Shown here: in pieces, positions 40,029 through 51,630 of the stretch
How the letters are laid out: the number at the start of each line of letters is the position of its first letter
Position numbering within the stretch: position 1 is the first letter of the stretch
Virus record (IMG/VR): IMGVR_UViG_3300026094_000002
Reading direction: 5' to 3' (one strand)
DNA: 64,000 nucleotides
Source: a virus
Lineage: Duplodnaviria > Caudoviricetes
Notes under the pieces: model-generated
Seen by the model: the letters and a program-made list of their open reading frames with translations, nothing else
The model's database searches: none
What the model was told of the DNA's origin: nothing
Program-made: the position numbers and the translations under genes

Positions 40029-41429
40029 CTATTGACTTTTTATTTGATTAAGCATTTGCTTTAATTTTGTACTTTGCACATCAGCGTCAATTTTTCCCGA
40101 CTCGGATGATTCAGAATCTATTACTCCTGTAGAATTTCCAGTACTATCTCTGTCTCTAAGAGAGTTTAAAATACTGGGCTGTGATGATGATGATTCTGCT
40201 TCACTTAAGTCACTAATTCTTAGGCATTCCATATCAAATTCTAAATCGACTTTTTGACCAACACCGGAACTTGAGCGTGTTTTCATTAACTGTATTTGGT
40301 ACCGACCACGCTCACGCATAGAACGACTAGTGAAAATACCAAATACATTATCTGCAGTGTTTATTTTAGAAATACCACCTGAAATATGTGAATGATCAAA
40401 TTCTATCTCATCGACACTTGAGCGATTTAATTGTGAAGCTGTCACAAAAAGAACCCCCAATTCTTTTGCAAGATTCCGCAGTTCTTCTGAAACATACTTG
40501 TCTTTAACAAATAAATCATTAGGAGAAACTTTCGCACTTACTGGCATTAGTAGGTCAAGATAATCAACACAAATAAAGTCAATTTGCCTACCAGTCTTTA
40601 TTGATAGTTCTTTTACATATGCACGGATGTCATTAACTGTGCTCTGTGCATTCATATACTTTATTTGCAATGTGCCAGACTTCTTAGACATCATCTTGAC
40701 TTTCATTTCTACAGTGTCAAGGTCTTTAAAAATCTCTTTAGAACCAGTATTAGTCAACATACCATCAAGACGCATAGCAGTCAACCCTTCGGAAAGTTCT
40801 AGGGTTATATAAACGCCATTTAATCCGGCTTCTATCCAATTGACAGATAGGTTTTGCATAAACAAACTTTTGCCTGAGCCAGAACCACCAGCAAAAATCT
40901 GTAATTCACCACGATTAAAGCCGCCATATAACACTTTGTCTAACGCTGACCACCCAGTCGAGTTTTGCCCATTATTTTCTTTAAGGGCAGTCAACCTTGC
41001 ACGTGGATCGTCAAAATAATCTAGACCCATATCTTTGGTTAAACTTATTTGAACCGCATCTTTTATAAGTTTCTCTACAGGATCATAATCACCTTTCTCT
41101 AACAAGTCAGCAGACTTTAGTATCGCTCGCTCTAATTCTTGACGACGTGTAAATGCTTCAAATTCTTCTAATAGCCAATCAAAATGTCCATCATTAAGCC
41201 CGTCAATTGGCTGCAATTTGATACCAGTGGTTGCAGAAATCTGCTCACGCTCTGGCATTGTGTAGTATTTGTCACAATGCTCTTGTATAAATTCGGCAAC
41301 TGGTCGCAATTGCTGGTCAAAATTTAGTGGATTGAATATATTCTGAATACGCACATAAAGTTCTGCATCATAAAGAAGCATTTCTAGAAATAATTGTTGA
41401 ACTTCTGGTCCATATTCTTTAAGTGGCAA
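40029..41429 (-). CDS. Replicative DNA helicase (T4 gp41/DnaB-like)
   Basis: GGSGSGKS, YITLELSE, VDYLD, TASQLNR and KTRSS. Confidence 0.92.
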   Translation of the reverse strand: MPLKEYGPEVQQLFLEMLLYDAELYVRIQNIFNPLNFDQQLRPVAEFIQEHCDKYYTMPEREQISATTGIKLQPIDGLNDGHFDWLLEEFEAFTRRQELERAILKSADLLEKGDYDPVEKLIKDAVQISLTKDMGLDYFDDPRARLTALKENNGQNSTGWSALDKVLYGGFNRGELQIFAGGSGSGKSLFMQNLSVNWIEAGLNGVYITLELSEGLTAMRLDGMLTNTGSKEIFKDLDTVEMKVKMMSKKSGTLQIKYMNAQSTVNDIRAYVKELSIKTGRQIDFICVDYLDLLMPVSAKVSPNDLFVKDKYVSEELRNLAKELGVLFVTASQLNRSSVDEIEFDHSHISGGISKINTADNVFGIFTSRSMRERGRYQIQLMKTRSSSGVGQKVDLEFDMECLRISDLSEAESSSSQPSILNSLRDRDSTGNSTGVIDSESSESGKIDADVQSTKLKQMLNQIKSQ

Positions 41430-42411
41430 TGGATACCTCTAATTTTCGCTTGAGTTTCTTCTTATTCATCTCTATTTTGATCCGACTATGTTCTGCATTT
41501 TGTATAATAGTTATTATTGTTGATAGACGCCCTATTTTTCTGAAAGCATCATTTATATCTTTACACCCGTCTGGCCATTCAAGTGGAATGCTTACCGACC
41601 ATCCCAGTTCTAATGCTCGGTCTATCATACTCATTCCTGCTTTATCGTGGTCAGGAACTACAATGACCTCACGCCGAAGCCGATTGATCAACTCTGCTTG
41701 TTGTGGTGAAACCGTGCTATGCATTACCGACAGGCCATCAATGGAAAGTGCATCAAAAATGCCTTCGGTAACAATGGCATATTTCCAATTTTCTTGTTGT
41801 AAGTCTATACCAAACACATATCCGGGTTGGCTGTTTGAAAGATACTTTGGTTTACGATTGTCAAGAAATCTAATTGAATATCCCACTGTTTTTTCATCGT
41901 GGGTAAATGGTACTAGTATTCCTTCACGACCATATTCATTAGAATCAATTGCCATCAGCGGATATGAGTCGTCGATACATCTGCTATTCAGATACTCTTT
42001 GTGATTTAAATGTTTGGCGTTGATCAGTTCAATGTTTTCAGGCAATTCTTTAGATTCAAAGTTAATCTGTTTTTTCTTTGGCTGATTATAATTTATTGTA
42101 GCCACAATATCATTCATAGAACGATATTTCAAACTTTCTAAATTGATTCTATCAATCTCTGTAGCATCAACGCCCAACCACTGAAGAAAACTTCTTGCTT
42201 TAAAGTTTAGGTTACGGCCATTTTTAAAGCCACACTTAAATCCACAATTAAAACAGTTATAGGTCCAACCTTCCTCTGTGGTGATTAATCCACCACGATT
42301 TTTAGTATCAGGGGTTTCGCCATTGTGAATACAGCACGGTCCCGAAAAACTAATCCACCCAGATGGAGTGGTTTTGGCATTGGCTGGAAGATATTGTCTA
42401 ACATCCATCAT
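41419..42411 (-). CDS. DNA primase (T4 gp61-like)
   Basis: CCIH...YNCFNCG zinc site, TEGIFDA and VPDHDKAG...KDIND TOPRIM motifs. Confidence 0.88.
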   Translation of the reverse strand: MMDVRQYLPANAKTTPSGWISFSGPCCIHNGETPDTKNRGGLITTEEGWTYNCFNCGFKCGFKNGRNLNFKARSFLQWLGVDATEIDRINLESLKYRSMNDIVATINYNQPKKKQINFESKELPENIELINAKHLNHKEYLNSRCIDDSYPLMAIDSNEYGREGILVPFTHDEKTVGYSIRFLDNRKPKYLSNSQPGYVFGIDLQQENWKYAIVTEGIFDALSIDGLSVMHSTVSPQQAELINRLRREVIVVPDHDKAGMSMIDRALELGWSVSIPLEWPDGCKDINDAFRKIGRLSTIITIIQNAEHSRIKIEMNKKKLKRKLEVSIAT

Positions 42412-43150: not shown

Positions 43151-43996
43151 CTATCTATATAGGATATTTTCAATAGAACCATCAGAAACTTTGCCATAAA
43201 TTCTCAACCACGGATAATATCCAGTAATATTGATAGCGAATGTTTCACTGCTGTCTTCAAATTCTAATTCTGACACCTTTGTATTATTATTGTCGTCAGC
43301 AAGTGAAAAGTCAACTTCAAACCATGGATATTCTGTCTTTCCAAACCATATATCATCGTTATCCATAGCACCTTGTATTTCTATTATACCGGTAAAATCT
43401 TTTAAAGTTATCTGAAAAGTTGATTGATCTACGTCTCTGCCACGAGTCCAACTGCTGTATTGTGTCATTGGGTCTGCTGGTGGAGAATTTGATGCACGAT
43501 CACTACCAATATATTCTGATTGTGAGGGCATTGTGATTTCTGCAGTGTGAACATAATCAGGAAAAACAGCATCACGTATTTCAAGTTCACCACGAGAGCC
43601 AGCCTGTTCGTCCATATATACGGGCTCTGTAAGTATTCCTGAGTGTCGTGTAACTGACCAGTTAGCATCTTGAGGCTCAACATTGTCTAAATCTGCGGCG
43701 GTGACAGTGACTCTTGCACGACCTGATTTCGCGTTTAGTACAACAACTTCTTTTTCAAGAAGCAACTCTTTGCCATCTCTGCTGATGGCTCTAAAAACTA
43801 AATTACTGCCTGTTAAATCAAAAGAACGTTGTTCTTGATTTTGGAATTCAAAAAGTAAATTATTATCAACTCCACGACTTACGCGAAATGGTTTTGCATA
43901 CACTATTGTTGACCTCTTTGTATCAAAGTCTGTATCGACCTCACTGATTATTATGCGAGTATTTTGTTGGTATAAATATGCCTGAGTCGAGTACAT
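43151..43996 (-). CDS. Probable virion/baseplate-associated protein (BppU-like N-terminus)
   Basis: RGVDNNLLFEFQNQEQRSFDLTG and GRARVT; TAAATA at 44013-44018. Confidence 0.5.
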   Translation of the reverse strand: MYSTQAYLYQQNTRIIISEVDTDFDTKRSTIVYAKPFRVSRGVDNNLLFEFQNQEQRSFDLTGSNLVFRAISRDGKELLLEKEVVVLNAKSGRARVTVTAADLDNVEPQDANWSVTRHSGILTEPVYMDEQAGSRGELEIRDAVFPDYVHTAEITMPSQSEYIGSDRASNSPPADPMTQYSSWTRGRDVDQSTFQITLKDFTGIIEIQGAMDNDDIWFGKTEYPWFEVDFSLADDNNNTKVSELEFEDSSETFAINITGYYPWLRIYGKVSDGSIENILYR

Positions 43997-44017
43997 TCTT
44001 GATCACCTAAAGTATTT

Positions 44018-44395
44018 ATGAGCATTGAGTTATTTGAAAAACTAGCTGAAAAGTATCCTTTTATATCAGTCTGTCGTTATGCAGGACAGGAATACCTTGG
44101 AATAATCCAAAACAGAGATTCAACAATCACTACCATCTATGATTTTGGTGATATTGTAAATCCTGATTTAAAAATTGAGTTTTTGGAATTAGGAAGCACG
44201 TGGTGGTGGGAGTCAAATAGAATGATTCCTATTAACATATTTTTAAAGGGAGATTGGGACAAATTTAGACCATACCTTAAGACCTTTAATAATAGAGATC
44301 TTGAAATATTACATGGACCTGAGTGCTGTCTTTCTGAGATTGCTGCCAGAAAAGGCAAGAGACGATCAATTACCCTTGTCAGAAAAATAGATTAA
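44018..44395 (+). CDS. Hypothetical protein (125 aa)
   Basis: TATAAATA at 43971-43978 upstream; WWWESNRMIPINIF. Confidence 0.7.
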   Translation: MSIELFEKLAEKYPFISVCRYAGQEYLGIIQNRDSTITTIYDFGDIVNPDLKIEFLELGSTWWWESNRMIPINIFLKGDWDKFRPYLKTFNNRDLEILHGPECCLSEIAARKGKRRSITLVRKID

Positions 44396-44944
44396 TCGCA
44401 TATGTAAAGAAACAAGATGGGCATAAGCAACAGCATGGCTCTTTTTAAATGTATACCCATCATCAGTGGCTTCCCATACAGTTTCTGCTACTTCTTTCCA
44501 TGGTTTTCCAATTAAGTGATTTTTTCCGGGGCGTATAATAGCCAAAAACATAGACAATCGCTCTATAGAGTCAATTGGTTCTGGCATCTTTTGCATATTA
44601 TAATAATGGTTACCCAGATGAACAATCTGTTCAACAAACTCACTGTTGTTTAATTTGTCCCAAGGAATTGATTGATTCAAAACCCAATTATAGTGTTCTG
44701 TGTTTTTTATAAGTGAATATACATATACATTGAGAAAGTCAATCTTAAAGTACCCTCTTTCCTCTGCTACCCGGTAATCAATAGCCGCACAATCATTCAT
44801 TGGATCATAGGGGATGTCTGTTACATATACACCAGAATTATGTTTTTGTATTTCACCATTGTTTTCTTGTCTTGCAGGAATATGATCAAGCAAATCAAGT
44901 ATCTTTTTTCTGTCTGCAAAGTCTATATCAACATCTGCTGTCAT
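44366..44944 (-). CDS. Miniature family C (DnaE-like) polymerase catalytic fragment
   Basis: DVDIDF, HNSGVY, GYFKIDFL, LAIIRPG and FKKSHAVAYA in only 192 aa. Confidence 0.8.
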   Translation of the reverse strand: MTADVDIDFADRKKILDLLDHIPARQENNGEIQKHNSGVYVTDIPYDPMNDCAAIDYRVAEERGYFKIDFLNVYVYSLIKNTEHYNWVLNQSIPWDKLNNSEFVEQIVHLGNHYYNMQKMPEPIDSIERLSMFLAIIRPGKNHLIGKPWKEVAETVWEATDDGYTFKKSHAVAYAHLVSLHMRLIYFSDKGN

Positions 44945-44950
44945 ACTTTA

Positions 44951-45628
44951 CTACCACCCAGCCTGTTTTAAGATTTCTTGTATATATGTCTGATCCGATA
45001 GATACTTTGAAAACCTTGGTTGCCAGTACTCTGGATCAATCCAAGGCCACACAATTGATACCTGTTCTGGGTTTAAATTATTTAAAAACTCTTGTCCGCT
45101 TTCACTATTATAGACCACCCAAGGACTTATTCTGCCAGTAGATACCGCATAACACATTCTATTAGTGTTTCCATATCGTAGAATATCATGTGGTGGGCAG
45201 CCGGTTTCTTCTCCCCATTCAATACTGTACTCAATAGCTCTTTCAAGTGCATCCCGTGGGGCCTCTGTACGAAGATAATTATGAAGATATTCAGAATAAA
45301 TTTTATCTCTGCACCAATGGTCTATTTTTTTATTGTTGTCTATAACCCAATCAATAAACCGGGGTGGATTTATTGCTCGGATTCGCATCATGTAATAACC
45401 AAATTTTACAAAAGCACGATAATACTGACTACGAGCAAAGTCATCAAATGTTTTTAGTTTAGCCGATCCTTGTGTCTTTTCATAAAAACGCAAATAAGCA
45501 TTCATTCCCAACTGAACGCCTTTATGATCACGATCTTGATATCTACGCTTTAATTCGCACATATGAACCGCCAGCGTGGATTCCTTTACAAAACTTTTAC
45601 CGCAATATTTGCATATATTTTTAGACAT
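44951..45628 (-). CDS. Zinc-finger hypothetical protein
   Basis: N-terminal CKYCGKSF...HMC. Confidence 0.65.
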   Translation of the reverse strand: MSKNICKYCGKSFVKESTLAVHMCELKRRYQDRDHKGVQLGMNAYLRFYEKTQGSAKLKTFDDFARSQYYRAFVKFGYYMMRIRAINPPRFIDWVIDNNKKIDHWCRDKIYSEYLHNYLRTEAPRDALERAIEYSIEWGEETGCPPHDILRYGNTNRMCYAVSTGRISPWVVYNSESGQEFLNNLNPEQVSIVWPWIDPEYWQPRFSKYLSDQTYIQEILKQAGW

Positions 45629-45657
45629 TATATCTTAGACTATAAAATTAATTTATG

Positions 45658-45686
45658 ATTATATTTTAGACTTTTGCACATGTCAA
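45658..45686 (-). promoter_or_regulatory. Consensus sigma70 promoter TTGACA-17-TATAAT
   Basis: -35 at 45681-45686, -10 at 45658-45663. Confidence 0.85.
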
Positions 45687-47290
45687 CCTAATTCATGCCA
45701 GTTTTTAATCCAAGCACAAAGTTGCAATAGATGTATAGAATCGTAAGAAACAGTATCATTATTTTTGCAATTAAGATATTTTGAAAAAATGTTTTTTGTG
45801 TGTCTATGAATACCAGTAGTTTTCAGATACCCCCATGCCCATTGAATAATATCAATAGAACTTTGGTTTATAGGAAAAAAGTAATCAAATATTTCTTCTT
45901 CACCAGATTTATACCGATTCAAAAATGATGCTGTTTCATTTAAATAATTTTTTTGTTGTTGTGCTTCTAAACTTGAGTTATACAAATCATCATTAGTCAT
46001 TCTTGCAGTGATTGTTATCAGATCTCTATCGCAATATGGACTATATACTGGCTTTTTTAAGTTAGATTGATCTGACGACAAATATGTACTTGGCTTTAGT
46101 GACCATAAATCTATCGTAGGATTTTTATATTTTCCTGTCAATAAGTTGTCATAATCTATTAAATCTGTAAATGCATAATTTCCTTGGTAAGAATATGACT
46201 TAGAAATTATTTTATTGGCGTCTTCAAGTGTTTTTGCCATTTTTAATTTTGACAGTATCACTGTTGCATGTCGTTGAGTATGCAGAAAACACTCATCCCC
46301 ATTTGTTCCCTTAATAAAGTAATCGCAATGTTTTAAATACTTTTTAGCAACAAAAATATCATGAAATAAATCCACATTTTTTGTGGGATATGACCATATT
46401 TCTGGCAGGAAATGTGAAAAAAAATCTTCTATAAAAAACTTTTCAAAATAAGTGTTTATATTTTTCTTATTAAGGTACTCATGTAAGTTTTCAGCATTTT
46501 TGGCCCATTTTTGAAGTGTTTTGTCAGTATGAAAGCAATATGTTGCCACATCAAAATTAATACCTTTTTTCAATAAAGCCTCAACAACAGTTAAACTGTC
46601 AATACCAGTCGATGCCTGTACTCCAACTTTTGAGTTAGGATTTTGATTGATAATAGAACTAATATTATTATCAATCTTTTTATGCACATATTCGTCTATA
46701 TTTGATATTTTGGGCAGAGTTTTTTTATAATGATAATCACATACCCTGTCATAATATCTTTTTACATTTAAACGAGAGGGAGTAGCAACCAGTTTTCCTG
46801 CTGCTGGCAATCTGAAAACATTTTTGAGTATAGTTTTGTTGCTTTCAAAAATAAGGAATGGATTTACGGGATTATATTCAACCGGGCTTAAGTACTCAGA
46901 ATCATATATCTGTCTATTAAATGCATTTACCAACCATGTTTTATTAAGAGAAAAATATTTAGACGAAAAAGAAATTAAGTCTGTTGTAATTGTTATTTCA
47001 TTGTTTCTTTTTGAATAAAAGATGGGATAATCACTATGAATATCAGTATAGATCTCAATACAATTTTCATAAATGCGGCCATAAAACCAACTGCCGTTTT
47101 GCTCGGATATATTGTCAAAATTGGCTTCTGAAAGAGGCACTGGCCAACTCACCCCAAACCAGAAATATAGTGAGTTGTTTTTGTGACTAATCTCTGTTCT
47201 AGAATCAAAATAATAATAATATTTTCCAAATTTATTAAAAGATGGGATTCCGGATGTTAAATTTGGGTTTGTCGTAATTGTGAAATTCAT
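45683..47290 (-). CDS. Asparagine-synthase-like (N-type ATP pyrophosphatase) protein
   Basis: TILKNVFRLPAAG, STGIDS, KGTNGDE and SPYCDRDL. AT-rich; no N-terminal catalytic Cys. Confidence 0.6.
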   Translation of the reverse strand: MNFTITTNPNLTSGIPSFNKFGKYYYYFDSRTEISHKNNSLYFWFGVSWPVPLSEANFDNISEQNGSWFYGRIYENCIEIYTDIHSDYPIFYSKRNNEITITTDLISFSSKYFSLNKTWLVNAFNRQIYDSEYLSPVEYNPVNPFLIFESNKTILKNVFRLPAAGKLVATPSRLNVKRYYDRVCDYHYKKTLPKISNIDEYVHKKIDNNISSIINQNPNSKVGVQASTGIDSLTVVEALLKKGINFDVATYCFHTDKTLQKWAKNAENLHEYLNKKNINTYFEKFFIEDFFSHFLPEIWSYPTKNVDLFHDIFVAKKYLKHCDYFIKGTNGDECFLHTQRHATVILSKLKMAKTLEDANKIISKSYSYQGNYAFTDLIDYDNLLTGKYKNPTIDLWSLKPSTYLSSDQSNLKKPVYSPYCDRDLITITARMTNDDLYNSSLEAQQQKNYLNETASFLNRYKSGEEEIFDYFFPINQSSIDIIQWAWGYLKTTGIHRHTKNIFSKYLNCKNNDTVSYDSIHLLQLCAWIKNWHELG

Positions 47291-47353
47291 TTATTAGTAT
47301 TAGTATTAGTATATCAATTCATATTACAATGCTTGTACATTGATTTTATATAA

Positions 47354-47794
47354 CTATGTATTGTATTTTTTATGCATATGAGATATTTCTTTTTTATCGA
47401 CTATACTTGAAAGCACTTCAATGTCATCTAACTTCAAGTTTGGATACATTTCTTTTAGTTTTTTAATTTTATTACTTTCATCAGAATCTTTTTTCTTAAA
47501 TCCAATCCATTCATGATGATGTGTCCCCATTCCCGGGCTAATTGTAGTAGCACAAAGCCATTGTAACTTTGGATGTTTGTTTATTTCAAAAAAATTCTTG
47601 TTTAATCGCTGGTTTGTCGCATGGAGATAATATTCTTGTAATTCAGACGAGCCTCGGACAGAACTACCCCACCTAATCATTAGGTAGTTTGAAAACTTTT
47701 TCTTTTCTTCTTCGCTCAATTCATCATAAAACTCTCTGTTCTTTTGATCGAACATTTTCATTTCATTCTGAATAGTTAATTTATTGTTCATCAT
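47354..47794 (-). CDS. Clamp loader small subunit-like protein (T4 gp62-like)
   Basis: FYDELSEEEKKKFSNYLMIRW, LNKNFF, KHPKLQW and HEWI. Confidence 0.6.
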   Translation of the reverse strand: MMNNKLTIQNEMKMFDQKNREFYDELSEEEKKKFSNYLMIRWGSSVRGSSELQEYYLHATNQRLNKNFFEINKHPKLQWLCATTISPGMGTHHHEWIGFKKKDSDESNKIKKLKEMYPNLKLDDIEVLSSIVDKKEISHMHKKYNT

Positions 47795-49156: not shown

Positions 49157-50617
49157 TTAATTTTGCCAATCTAATTTTTCTATTGAAAAAGGATATTGGG
49201 CTTCTTTATAGAAACGTTTTCGTTTTGTGAGATGTCTCTTGGCAAACTTACACGTTGAAGTTATATCCCATATCTGTACATGGTCTTTGTCTTCTGCTTT
49301 TCTTATTCCACGACCAATGGACTGGATAACACGCACAAAACTCTTACCCGGTTCAACAAGAACAAGGTTGAAAATTCGAGGAAGGTTAATTCCCACAGCA
49401 GCAACGCCATAAGTTGCTATTATAATCTTTCCTTCAGAGTCTGCTACTTGGTCATAATGGTCTTGTCTATCGGTGGCTTTTGTACTGCCAGAAATGAATA
49501 CTGAATTATCTAACCTCGCTTCCAATTCTTTTCCTGCGGTAACTCTATCAACAAGCACAAGAACATTACCAGATTCGCTTGCACTTTTAATAATTCGGCT
49601 CATTGTATCTAATCTTTCTGGCTCTTCAAGAAGATACTTTAACTCACTCTGGTAATTATTATACTCTACATGATCTATCATTTGAACGATATTCACATGA
49701 CAGTTTGCCAATACGCCACGCTGTTGAAGTTCAGATGCAGATAACTGTGACCCAACTGGTCCAAGACTCACATGTAGTGCTTGATATGCATAATCTTCTT
49801 TCGGTACCGTGCCAGTCAATCCCCATCGTATTGGAATATGTCCCATTGCACCTGTTAGTAGAGTTTTTAATGCATCAGCTTTTGCACTATGTACCTCATC
49901 AACAATTACACAAACAACGTCTTCTAAAAACTCTCCAATAGAAATATCGGCAGTTTGATTCTTGGTGTTTTTCATTAAACCATTAAGACTTTGCCAAGTA
50001 CATATTGTATGCTGGTGACCAAATTCTTTTCTATCACCATAAAATACACCAACATCAAGTCCCATGTTAGTATAGTCTTTTTCAGTCTGTGTTACCAAGC
50101 TTTTATTAGGGACAATAACTATGCTTCGGCCATGCTTTTCTGCCCGCTGACTTAACGCCGCAGTCATTATCGTTTTACCACTGCCGGTAGCTATCTCTTG
50201 AATTGATTGAGGGGTTTTTAAAAAGTTATTGATTATCTCTACTTGATAATCACGCAGCATTATAGATTCACCAGCAGCAGGGTGTGTTGAAGGCCACTTC
50301 CTGTCAGAAAAAGATTGTTCATCAACCTTTTCTAAATTATAATCTATTTGGTAGTCCCGACGGTCGTCTAATTTAATTTCGTAATTTTCTTCTATTAATA
50401 TAGGAATGATTTCAGGAATTAAATTAACGAACGATGACCCACCGAGTTGAAAGAATGCTACCTTACCATCCCAGCGACCCAATCTAACTGCTGGCATATA
50501 ACGAGCCCCGGGAATTTCATACTTAAATTGATTGGTTAGACGCCTTCTGGTATCAAGATCTAACCCTTCAATTTTAATATTGACTTCATCTTTTACTATA
50601 ATCGTTGCTTCTTTCAT
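49157..50617 (-). CDS. uvsW: UvsW-like SF2 DNA helicase
   Basis: LRDYQ, ATGSGKT, VDEVH, GLTGT and QSIGRGIR. Confidence 0.9.
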   Translation of the reverse strand: MKEATIIVKDEVNIKIEGLDLDTRRRLTNQFKYEIPGARYMPAVRLGRWDGKVAFFQLGGSSFVNLIPEIIPILIEENYEIKLDDRRDYQIDYNLEKVDEQSFSDRKWPSTHPAAGESIMLRDYQVEIINNFLKTPQSIQEIATGSGKTIMTAALSQRAEKHGRSIVIVPNKSLVTQTEKDYTNMGLDVGVFYGDRKEFGHQHTICTWQSLNGLMKNTKNQTADISIGEFLEDVVCVIVDEVHSAKADALKTLLTGAMGHIPIRWGLTGTVPKEDYAYQALHVSLGPVGSQLSASELQQRGVLANCHVNIVQMIDHVEYNNYQSELKYLLEEPERLDTMSRIIKSASESGNVLVLVDRVTAGKELEARLDNSVFISGSTKATDRQDHYDQVADSEGKIIIATYGVAAVGINLPRIFNLVLVEPGKSFVRVIQSIGRGIRKAEDKDHVQIWDITSTCKFAKRHLTKRKRFYKEAQYPFSIEKLDWQN

Positions 50618-50625
50618 ATAAAGAA

Positions 50626-51630
50626 TTATTTACTCATACACGTGTTTCTAGCCAGAGATTTCCAATCATTAGAAATCTTTGTGAGATCTGCAATCTTTAA
50701 TGCCATTCGCAGACTTACTTCGCGAAGTTGATTGCAATTTTCCTGCATAAAATCAATAATTGCCTCACCCATATCCGCAGAGAAATCATAGTCCTGAAAC
50801 AAATCGCCCTTGCGGTAAATCTGTCGAATACGCAGAATTTTATCCCGCATAGTATCCAGAGTTAGGTCAAGATAGTGACAACGACTCTGTAGAGCATCAA
50901 GGTGATCTGCTAACTTTTTACTACGAACATTTTCAAACTTCAGATTAGTGACAAAAATTACACTGCCACGAAATTCAAAATTATTGGGTACGTCTTCTGA
51001 GCGTAGTTTGTGACTATCAGCATTCCAGTGAATACGACGAGTTTTGCCTGTATCTAATGCTGCCTTTAAAATATTAAGAGAGAGATCGTCTAGCAAAACA
51101 CTGTCACAATCATCAAATACAATAACGTTATTTGATTCCCGACGCTTGTACAATTGACAATAAAGACCAATAGGCGTCATTGCACCTTTGACAAACTCGT
51201 ACTTCTGCTCCTTGGCACTAATGGTGTCAAAAAGACCAGCCTTTTCCAATTGCTTTTCAATTCCATAGCTCTTGCCAACGCCGGGAGGACCAGAAACAAT
51301 CATTGCACGAACATCACCGTTTACAGTGGCACGAGTCATATTGTCTAGGATATCAAAACGCTCAGCAATCCTATTGATCACCTCTTCATCGCTTTCCTGT
51401 GGCTGACTAAATGAAGCATTTACATCAGTATCAAACTCACCCACTTCAATATTTTCAGGAGTATCAACCCGGATGCGAACAACATCGTGTTCTGAGCCAA
51501 AATATCCATTGCTACGAACAGTGACAAAACCGCCTCGCTTTCCTTCCTTGTACTCTTTTACCAGATCAAATGCTTGATTCTGAATAGTAAAATTACGATA
51601 TGTGCCCTGATGTACTAGAACTTGTGTCAT
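50626..51630 (-). CDS. AAA+ ATPase with N-terminal beta domain
   Basis: GPPGVGKS, VFDDCD, FVTN and ALQSRCH. Confidence 0.8.
   Translation of the reverse strand: MTQVLVHQGTYRNFTIQNQAFDLVKEYKEGKRGGFVTVRSNGYFGSEHDVVRIRVDTPENIEVGEFDTDVNASFSQPQESDEEVINRIAERFDILDNMTRATVNGDVRAMIVSGPPGVGKSYGIEKQLEKAGLFDTISAKEQKYEFVKGAMTPIGLYCQLYKRRESNNVIVFDDCDSVLLDDLSLNILKAALDTGKTRRIHWNADSHKLRSEDVPNNFEFRGSVIFVTNLKFENVRSKKLADHLDALQSRCHYLDLTLDTMRDKILRIRQIYRKGDLFQDYDFSADMGEAIIDFMQENCNQLREVSLRMALKIADLTKISNDWKSLARNTCMSK

Follow-up and report, generated by a model that had tools for sequence, protein, structure and literature searches.

A 192-residue jumbo phage protein is probably the C-subunit of a two-piece, miniature family C DNA polymerase

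Introduction

The closest described relative of the gene studied here is the minimal DNA polymerase III alpha subunit of the group 2.2 jumbo phages. Section 3.4.1 of PMC7824862 presents it as split into two genes that lie far apart, one for an N-terminal NTP-binding protein (the N-half) and the other for a C-terminal protein that binds Mg and template (the C-half), an arrangement predicted in 2021 by Iyer, Anantharaman, Krishnan, Burroughs and Aravind. Our literature searches found no biochemistry, genetics or activity assay of split Pol III alpha. The roles that we assign to individual residues are taken from ternary structures of E. coli Pol III (bioRxiv 10.64898/2026.06.29.735100), in which D401, D403 and D555 bind metal, K553 and H511 contact the primer, R639-P640-G641 contact the templating base, Y754 and F756 form the roof of the base-pair pocket, and H760 is the ribonucleotide gate. 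According to the same source the RGS motif of DnaE (R362, G363, S364) contacts the sugar and the beta and gamma phosphates, R362A abolishes activity and R390A alone costs 27-fold. Another family C enzyme that bears on the question is B. subtilis DnaE3, which extends RNA primers for PolC (PMC13220808).

Here we analyse a gene in a 64,000-nt stretch of phage DNA (the window), which is part of the 305,141-bp record CACUXM010000001.1. A preliminary description, made from the letters of the window, had read the 192-aa product as a miniature DnaE-like polymerase that lacks most DnaE domains. It offered two explanations, a minimal nucleotidyltransferase with a new role or one part of a multi-subunit polymerase, perhaps with the zinc-finger protein encoded upstream under the same promoter.

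Results

Fold and residue mapping of the 192-residue protein

The open reading frame and its motifs are real, as frame, start, stop, motif order, profile match and fold match all agree. DVDIDF, HNSGV, KIDFL, IRPG and FKKSHAVAYA follow each other in the order of DnaE, and the PHROG 11778 profile matches residues 3-185 with an E-value of 9e-51. Pfam and PDB sequence searches did not detect the C-half, and its likeness to DnaE was picked up by fold search. An AlphaFold (AF2) model built from 120 homologues has a pLDDT of 92.9, and its first 15 Foldseek matches are without exception Pol III alpha or PolC (best E 3e-3). In VIA, residues 1-191 align to Mtb DnaE1 418-808 (Z 9.1, rmsd 3.9, 188 aligned), and the model also aligns to E. 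coli DnaE 400-781 (Z 7.3), to PolC 970-1296 and to Taq 460-838; the next fold after the family C polymerases reaches only Z 4.5. These alignments indicate that the protein begins at the catalytic motif, stops after the nucleotide-pocket helix and has big internal deletions. With a model that spans only DnaE 400-781, the PHP, GS motif, HhH, clamp-binding and OB regions and most of the fingers are missing, just as the preliminary description had listed them. The index finger is reduced to about 23 residues where DnaE has 112. Hairpin 22-40 of the model appears to be two thumb strands without the helical thumb, a reading based on the model and on the match to H511.

Mapped onto E. coli DnaE, D4/D6/D8 correspond to D401/D403/D405, H35 to H511, K67 to K553, D69 to D555, R138-P139-G140 to R639-P640-G641, Y164 to Y754, F166 to F756 and H170 to H760. 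The C-half thus keeps its equivalents of the metal ligands, of both primer contacts, of the template contact and of the three pocket residues. In 88 diverse C-half sequences D4, D6, D8, K67, D69, P139 and H170 are invariant, and the metal-binding Asp residues are likewise invariant in 97 locus sequences. The equivalents of the primer-end contacts K553 and H511 do not vary among C-halves, and the Y754 equivalent is Y in 64 of the 88. Against close relatives the dN/dS of the window gene is 0.106-0.123, and the C-half median over 166 pairs is 0.117. The check across homologs that the preliminary description had proposed therefore gives about 0.11, with no loss of the Asp triad and no sign of the decay that it had named as counterevidence.

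Nearly all scored candidates for the C-half family pass (7978/8000), which gives about 8000 relatives of equal length; at 50% identity the family forms 492 clusters. The closest homologues of the window protein are 77-88% identical and lie on contigs that, judging by their names, were sampled from brine and salterns; identity to members from cultured phages is 34-44%. Matches in cultured phages fall in 96 records of the RaK2/PA5oct/Atu_ph07 type, and a plasmid search gave no match. The 15 matches in bacterial and archaeal genomes are probably mis-binned phage DNA, since all 15 lie on MAG contigs that carry phage neighbour genes. The GTDB MAG contigs with the phage gene block number 15, and one of them, of 335 kb, is in a Neomarinimicrobiota bin.

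The gene block and the zinc-finger neighbour

The gene lies in a block that runs from a UvsW-like helicase through three conserved genes, among them the zinc-finger gene, to the C-half, a convergent 125-aa gene, a virion protein, DnaG and DnaB (Table 1). An equivalent block is found in Phosso, PA5oct and GAP32. Together with the size of the record and with cultured matches from the group, this places the phage among the group 2.2 jumbo phages, with the window protein as a stand-alone C-subunit of split Pol III alpha. C-half neighbours always include the primase and the helicase. The most constant neighbour is the PHROG 11637 gene, seen in 15/15 MAG loci and 21/22 viral loci and kept beside the fused gene described below, and its 125-aa product is a candidate accessory factor.

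Table 1. Coordinates of the features discussed in the text
Feature	Position	Strand	Remarks
Probable C-half of split minimal DNA Pol III alpha, 192 aa	44366..44944	-	ATG start, TGA stop; catalytic Asp triad, putative thumb beta-hairpin with H511 equivalent, RPG template contact, Y754/F756/H760 nucleotide pocket
C2H2-type zinc-finger protein, 225 aa, PHROG 11058	44951..45628	-	ends 6 nt before C-half gene
Putative promoter, perfect sigma-70 consensus TTGACA-17-TATAAT	45658..45686	-	just upstream of zinc-finger gene
Convergent gene, 125 aa, PHROG 11637	44018..44395	+	30-nt overlap with C-half 3' end
DnaG-type (Toprim) primase	41419..42411	-	conserved block; order same in Phosso, PA5oct, GAP32
DnaB/gp41-like replicative helicase	40029..41429	-	conserved block
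UvsW-like helicase	49157..50617	-	upstream end of block
146-aa protein, PHROG 11758	47354-47794	-	contains FSNYLMIRW
334-aa AAA ATPase, PHROG 1250	50626-51630	-	upstream of UvsW-like helicase
ClpP, CsgF, CsgG, FecR and CHASE2 cyclase genes	L118:14602-20552 / L147:6012-12055		just before window start
Fused N+C genes (P0129, P0140, P0139, P0179)	L240:519-1649, L241:10001-11131, L242:4048-5178, L245:1066-2193		375-376 aa
567-aa single-chain DnaE of a second phage (IMG/VR G014)	L239:1384-3087		about 6-8 kb from its C-half (L209)

Some further genes of the phage are recorded here in their own right. The FSNYLMIRW stretch of the 146-aa protein recalls, we presume, T4 gp62, the small subunit of the clamp loader. 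An AAA ATPase gene is present above the UvsW-like helicase, and the genes just before the window make up a curli-type secretion module.

The promoter consensus is the only 12/12 match in 43800-47500 (read at 45686-45658), and from it the zinc-finger gene and the C-half are predicted to be co-transcribed. To this extent the preliminary proposal of a shared promoter holds up, and its proposal of the zinc-finger protein as polymerase partner does not. The zinc-finger gene is upstream of the C-half on the same strand in 121/124 loci, and in only 57 of those 121 are the two genes no more than 17 nt apart (loci not deduplicated in either count). One to three genes part the two in GAP32 and Phosso, and in the fused lineage the zinc-finger gene is found about 9 kb downstream of the fused gene. 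Its product, which is conserved at about 62-66% identity in many phages, does not resemble DnaE, and fold searches gave no clear match for it. When it was compared with the T4 helicase loader gp59, hhalign gave a probability of 0.15%, Foldseek one weak row that resembles a gp59-type loader (E 0.72) and VIA nothing at Z>=5; gp59 was not detected in the five relatives searched. Complex prediction of the C-half with the zinc-finger protein scored 0.00 twice, which weighs neither for nor against pairing. We conclude that the zinc-finger protein is a member of the replication block, perhaps with an accessory role, and not the missing polymerase half.

The N-half in relatives of the phage

A search of the window and the roughly 40 kb adjoining it downstream (about 176-280 kb of the record, about 104 kb in all) turned up neither an N-half nor a further piece of DnaE, which bears out the earlier remark that no neighbour supplies the lost domains. 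In relatives the complementary piece does exist, as PHROG 11127; examples of C/N pairs are GAP32_282/GAP32_323 and PA5oct PQE65_gp264/gp196. Pfam PF07733 finds it as a gene of 169-177 aa in Phosso, PA5oct and GAP32, where it is 224 kb, 44 kb and 34 kb from the C-half, and in every complete relative tested it is a separate gene of about 170 aa at a distance of 34-224 kb. Its own neighbours are a clamp loader and a GroES-like gene.

The two proteins fit together closely on the DnaE sequence. The last 70 residues of the N-half align to E. coli DnaE 322-392/393, RGS included, and in 77 metagenomic copies it ends in EFL[RK]-stop at the position of N393, 7 residues before D401. The C-half starts at about position 398, 3 residues before D401, so that only 394-397 are missing between the halves, and intein halves are absent at the break.

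The complete IMG/VR genomes G002 and G003 carry N-half and C-half alike, and so do the longer records G004, G005, G011 and G012 and 4/4 MAG bins tested; records with only one half are fragments of 8-44% completeness. The C-half tree groups the window protein with G003, G011 and G012 (SH-aLRT 95), its nearest long relatives, all of which carry the N-half 98-100 kb downstream of the C-half. We infer from them that the phage of the window has an N-half of its own, expected just beyond the DNA that was read. A family B polymerase accompanies both halves in 5/5 genomes tested. Of the search for other DnaE pieces and a family B polymerase that the preliminary description had called for, the part on DnaE pieces comes up empty in about 104 kb of the record, and both are found in the relatives. 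Its idea of a multi-part polymerase stands, with a distant GS-bearing gene of about 170 aa as partner in place of the zinc-finger gene. It had also said that a complementary half restoring an ordinary DnaE would speak against its reading; such a half exists, but the two total about 360 aa and do not make an ordinary DnaE.

A natural fusion of the two halves

A search for N-half proteins of greater length turned up a natural fusion; the C-half search took in 379-2000 aa. P0129, of 376 aa, joins a complete N-half (15-180, E 6e-36) through a 9-residue linker to a complete C-half (190-374, E 3e-51), in the order of DnaE, and is 40% identical to the window protein. The fusion cannot be put down to faulty assembly. 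Its junction recurs in four sequences that are 74-97% identical to one another, found on nine contigs that derive from separate ENA and Logan samples, and synonymous changes run across this junction (dN/dS about 0.2). The lineage is an AT-rich phage (25% GC), and its record names indicate that it probably comes from the ruminant gut.

Upstream of the fused gene is PHROG 15348, the usual upstream marker of the N-half (a weak match, E 1e-3), and downstream are PHROG 11637 and 14467, the usual downstream genes of the C-half. In the C-half tree the four fusions make up a single clade, which sits inside the stand-alone C-halves (SH-aLRT 94/88/82). Given this nesting and the mixed neighbours, the simplest reading would be that a rearrangement joined the halves secondarily; with a midpoint root only, the tree does not fix the direction between fused and split. 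Against cultured phages the fused query matches 186 places in 96 records, nearly all two per record, and none of the 96 matches both halves in one place. No relative of the fused gene was found in IMG/VR, and the main text of PMC7824862 makes no mention of a natural N+C fusion. The fused gene supports, at the level of sequence, the two-piece model and the reconstitution of the halves.

Other long N-half proteins (P0122-P0128, P0130) were set aside as single-member joins to unrelated or adjacent genes, probably chimeras or read-throughs. In P0123 and P0124, two related single-member sequences, the N-half runs in frame into its usual downstream gene, as a read-through, a fusion or a gene-calling artefact. 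ESM Atlas look-alikes of the fused protein are Bacillota clusters of 355-378 aa in which PF07733 is found; they may be pieces of DnaE or compact family C proteins of another kind. One phage with a mini C-half (G014) also encodes a single-chain DnaE that has no PHP, carries PF07733 and PF17657 and keeps GS, DxD and RRAF.K; this appears to be a second, differently reduced family C enzyme.

Active-site prediction

The N-half keeps R362, G363 and S364 without variation. Other residues that DnaE uses are gone: the R390 position is Glu or Asp in 77/77 N-halves, the counterpart of R396 would lie in the stretch missing between the two proteins and no Arg is conserved in the linker of the fusion, and R709, R710, K714 and K715 are deleted along with the index finger. 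Three basic positions are newly conserved, K141 (at P642), K167 (at N757) and the terminal Arg/Lys of the N-half (77/77), and these may compensate if their placement is as inferred. The loss of the dNTP-binding arginines is not in the main text of PMC7824862. The kept equivalents of R639, Y754 and H760 would favour templated, deoxy-selective DNA synthesis over terminal transferase or primase activity, with low predicted rate and processivity. Given the residues lost, there is real doubt whether the pair polymerises at all.

Discussion

The window protein is probably the C-subunit of a two-subunit, intein-free, miniature family C DNA polymerase of group 2.2 jumbo phages. This two-piece model is built on observations of homology, shared fold, sequence conservation, the joint occurrence of both halves and their natural fusion. 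In the proposed mechanism the C-subunit would bring the aspartates that bind Mg, the residues that touch primer and template, and the gate for the sugar, and the separate N-subunit of about 170 aa would supply the RGS motif that holds the dNTP phosphates. The halves would then assemble into an enzyme of about 360 aa for template-directed primer extension with dNTPs. It is expected to be slow, distributive and non-proofreading, because clamp-binding, HhH, OB and PHP regions are missing and the index finger and thumb are cut down.

The lost basic residues leave an opening for a pair that uses its Asp triad in some way other than ordinary polymerisation, such as pyrophosphorolysis or another reverse or related reaction (editing of 3' ends, removal of antiviral nucleotides that terminate chains), or single-nucleotide addition. 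R390, R396, R709/R710 and K714/K715 help to hold the incoming triphosphate and all of them are gone, and the primer-end contacts K553 and H511 are invariant. We nevertheless consider this unlikely, as RGS is invariant in the N-half, Y754/F756/H760 are kept, and K141, K167 and the N-half terminal Arg/Lys could take the place of what was lost. The missing finger arginines might also suggest a pair with no catalysis, which binds DNA junctions or serves as a decoy or inhibitor of the host replisome. This is very unlikely given the invariance of the metal-binding Asp residues (88/88 diverse and 97 locus sequences), and the contact surfaces for the host clamp, tau and epsilon have been deleted.

A template-independent nucleotidyltransferase, made of the 192-aa protein alone or with its zinc-finger neighbour, could draw on the presence of all three Asp on one chain, on the confident fold of that chain by itself in the model, and on the common promoter and upstream position of the zinc-finger gene. 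It deserves very little credence: the chain lacks the GS motif, in which the R362A change leaves DnaE inactive, N-halves and C-halves go together in a ratio of nearly one to one and are fused in one lineage, the template-contact residues are kept, and the zinc-finger gene is often distant. The stand-alone nucleotidyltransferase of the preliminary description is likewise not supported, as the dNTP-binding R362-G363-S364 sits on another protein. Small size could likewise hint at a decaying fragment of a captured host dnaE, an explanation with practically no chance and one that we regard as ruled out by the conservation data, with about 8000 relatives of the same length, synteny fixed from Cronobacter to soda-lake phages and dN/dS about 0.11.

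If the two-subunit polymerase is the right reading, the family B replicase would still do the bulk of synthesis. The most likely job of the split enzyme, to which we give somewhat less than an even chance, is as a helper to it at the primase-helicase, either in primer extension with hand-off or at short gaps. It would add a few dNTPs to RNA primers and then hand off, as B. subtilis DnaE does for PolC, or it would fill short gaps in recombination-dependent replication. This role is suggested by the neighbours of the two genes (primase and helicase for the C-half, clamp loader for the N-half), by the presence of a family B replicase, and by an enzyme that is predicted to be non-proofreading and clamp-independent. 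However, the need for a separate primer-extender is not obvious, given that family B polymerases of the T4 type elongate RNA primers by themselves. A fuller version, that the pair and the 376-aa fusion are an active family C polymerase a third of the size of DnaE and a Pol-alpha-like extender between DnaG and the family B replicase in a T4-type replisome, is possible though doubtful. Its dNTP pocket would be rebuilt, with Arg390 changed to Glu, the index finger deleted, and Lys141, Lys167 and a C-terminal Arg/Lys newly added.

In itself the window gene is no surprise, since the system to which it belongs was predicted in 2021 and has thousands of members. The gene pair is conserved across a very large group of phages, among them the therapy candidates PA5oct, Paride and RaK2. 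The single-chain fusion is independent evidence for one enzyme and offers a one-gene construct for assay and structure, and the residue map leads to sharp predictions (templated, dNTP-selective, slow). If active, the pair would define the minimal family C core and would explain the retention of another polymerase by a phage that already encodes a family B replicase.

The cyanobacterial split-intein DnaE is likewise a DnaE from two distant genes, whose halves carry inteins and are spliced into the full-length enzyme. Here neither half has room for an intein, and the break is inside the palm, between the GS and DxD motifs. With the family C polymerases of known structure (E. coli DnaE1, Taq, Mtb DnaE1 and Geobacillus PolC; PDB 5m1s, 2hpi, 5lew, 3f2b) the C-half has in common the Pol-beta-like palm, D401/D403/D555, K553, H511, RPG and Y754/F756/H760. 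It differs from them in covering 400-781 with 192 aa and large deletions, without helical thumb, PHP, most fingers, clamp-binding, HhH and OB. They also carry the GS motif on one chain, whereas here it is on a second protein and on the same chain only in the fused lineage. B. subtilis DnaE3 (PMC13220808) resembles the split enzyme, as a functional analogy only, in being a non-proofreading family C polymerase beside the main replicase for which clamp binding is dispensable. DnaE3 is full length and a single chain; the phage pair has two chains, a family B partner replicase and an activity that is predicted. The nearest match is the split Pol III alpha itself, as set out in the main text of PMC7824862: the window gene equals it in size, motifs and gene block, its relatives share the distant N-half and the family B polymerase, and in substance it is the same system.
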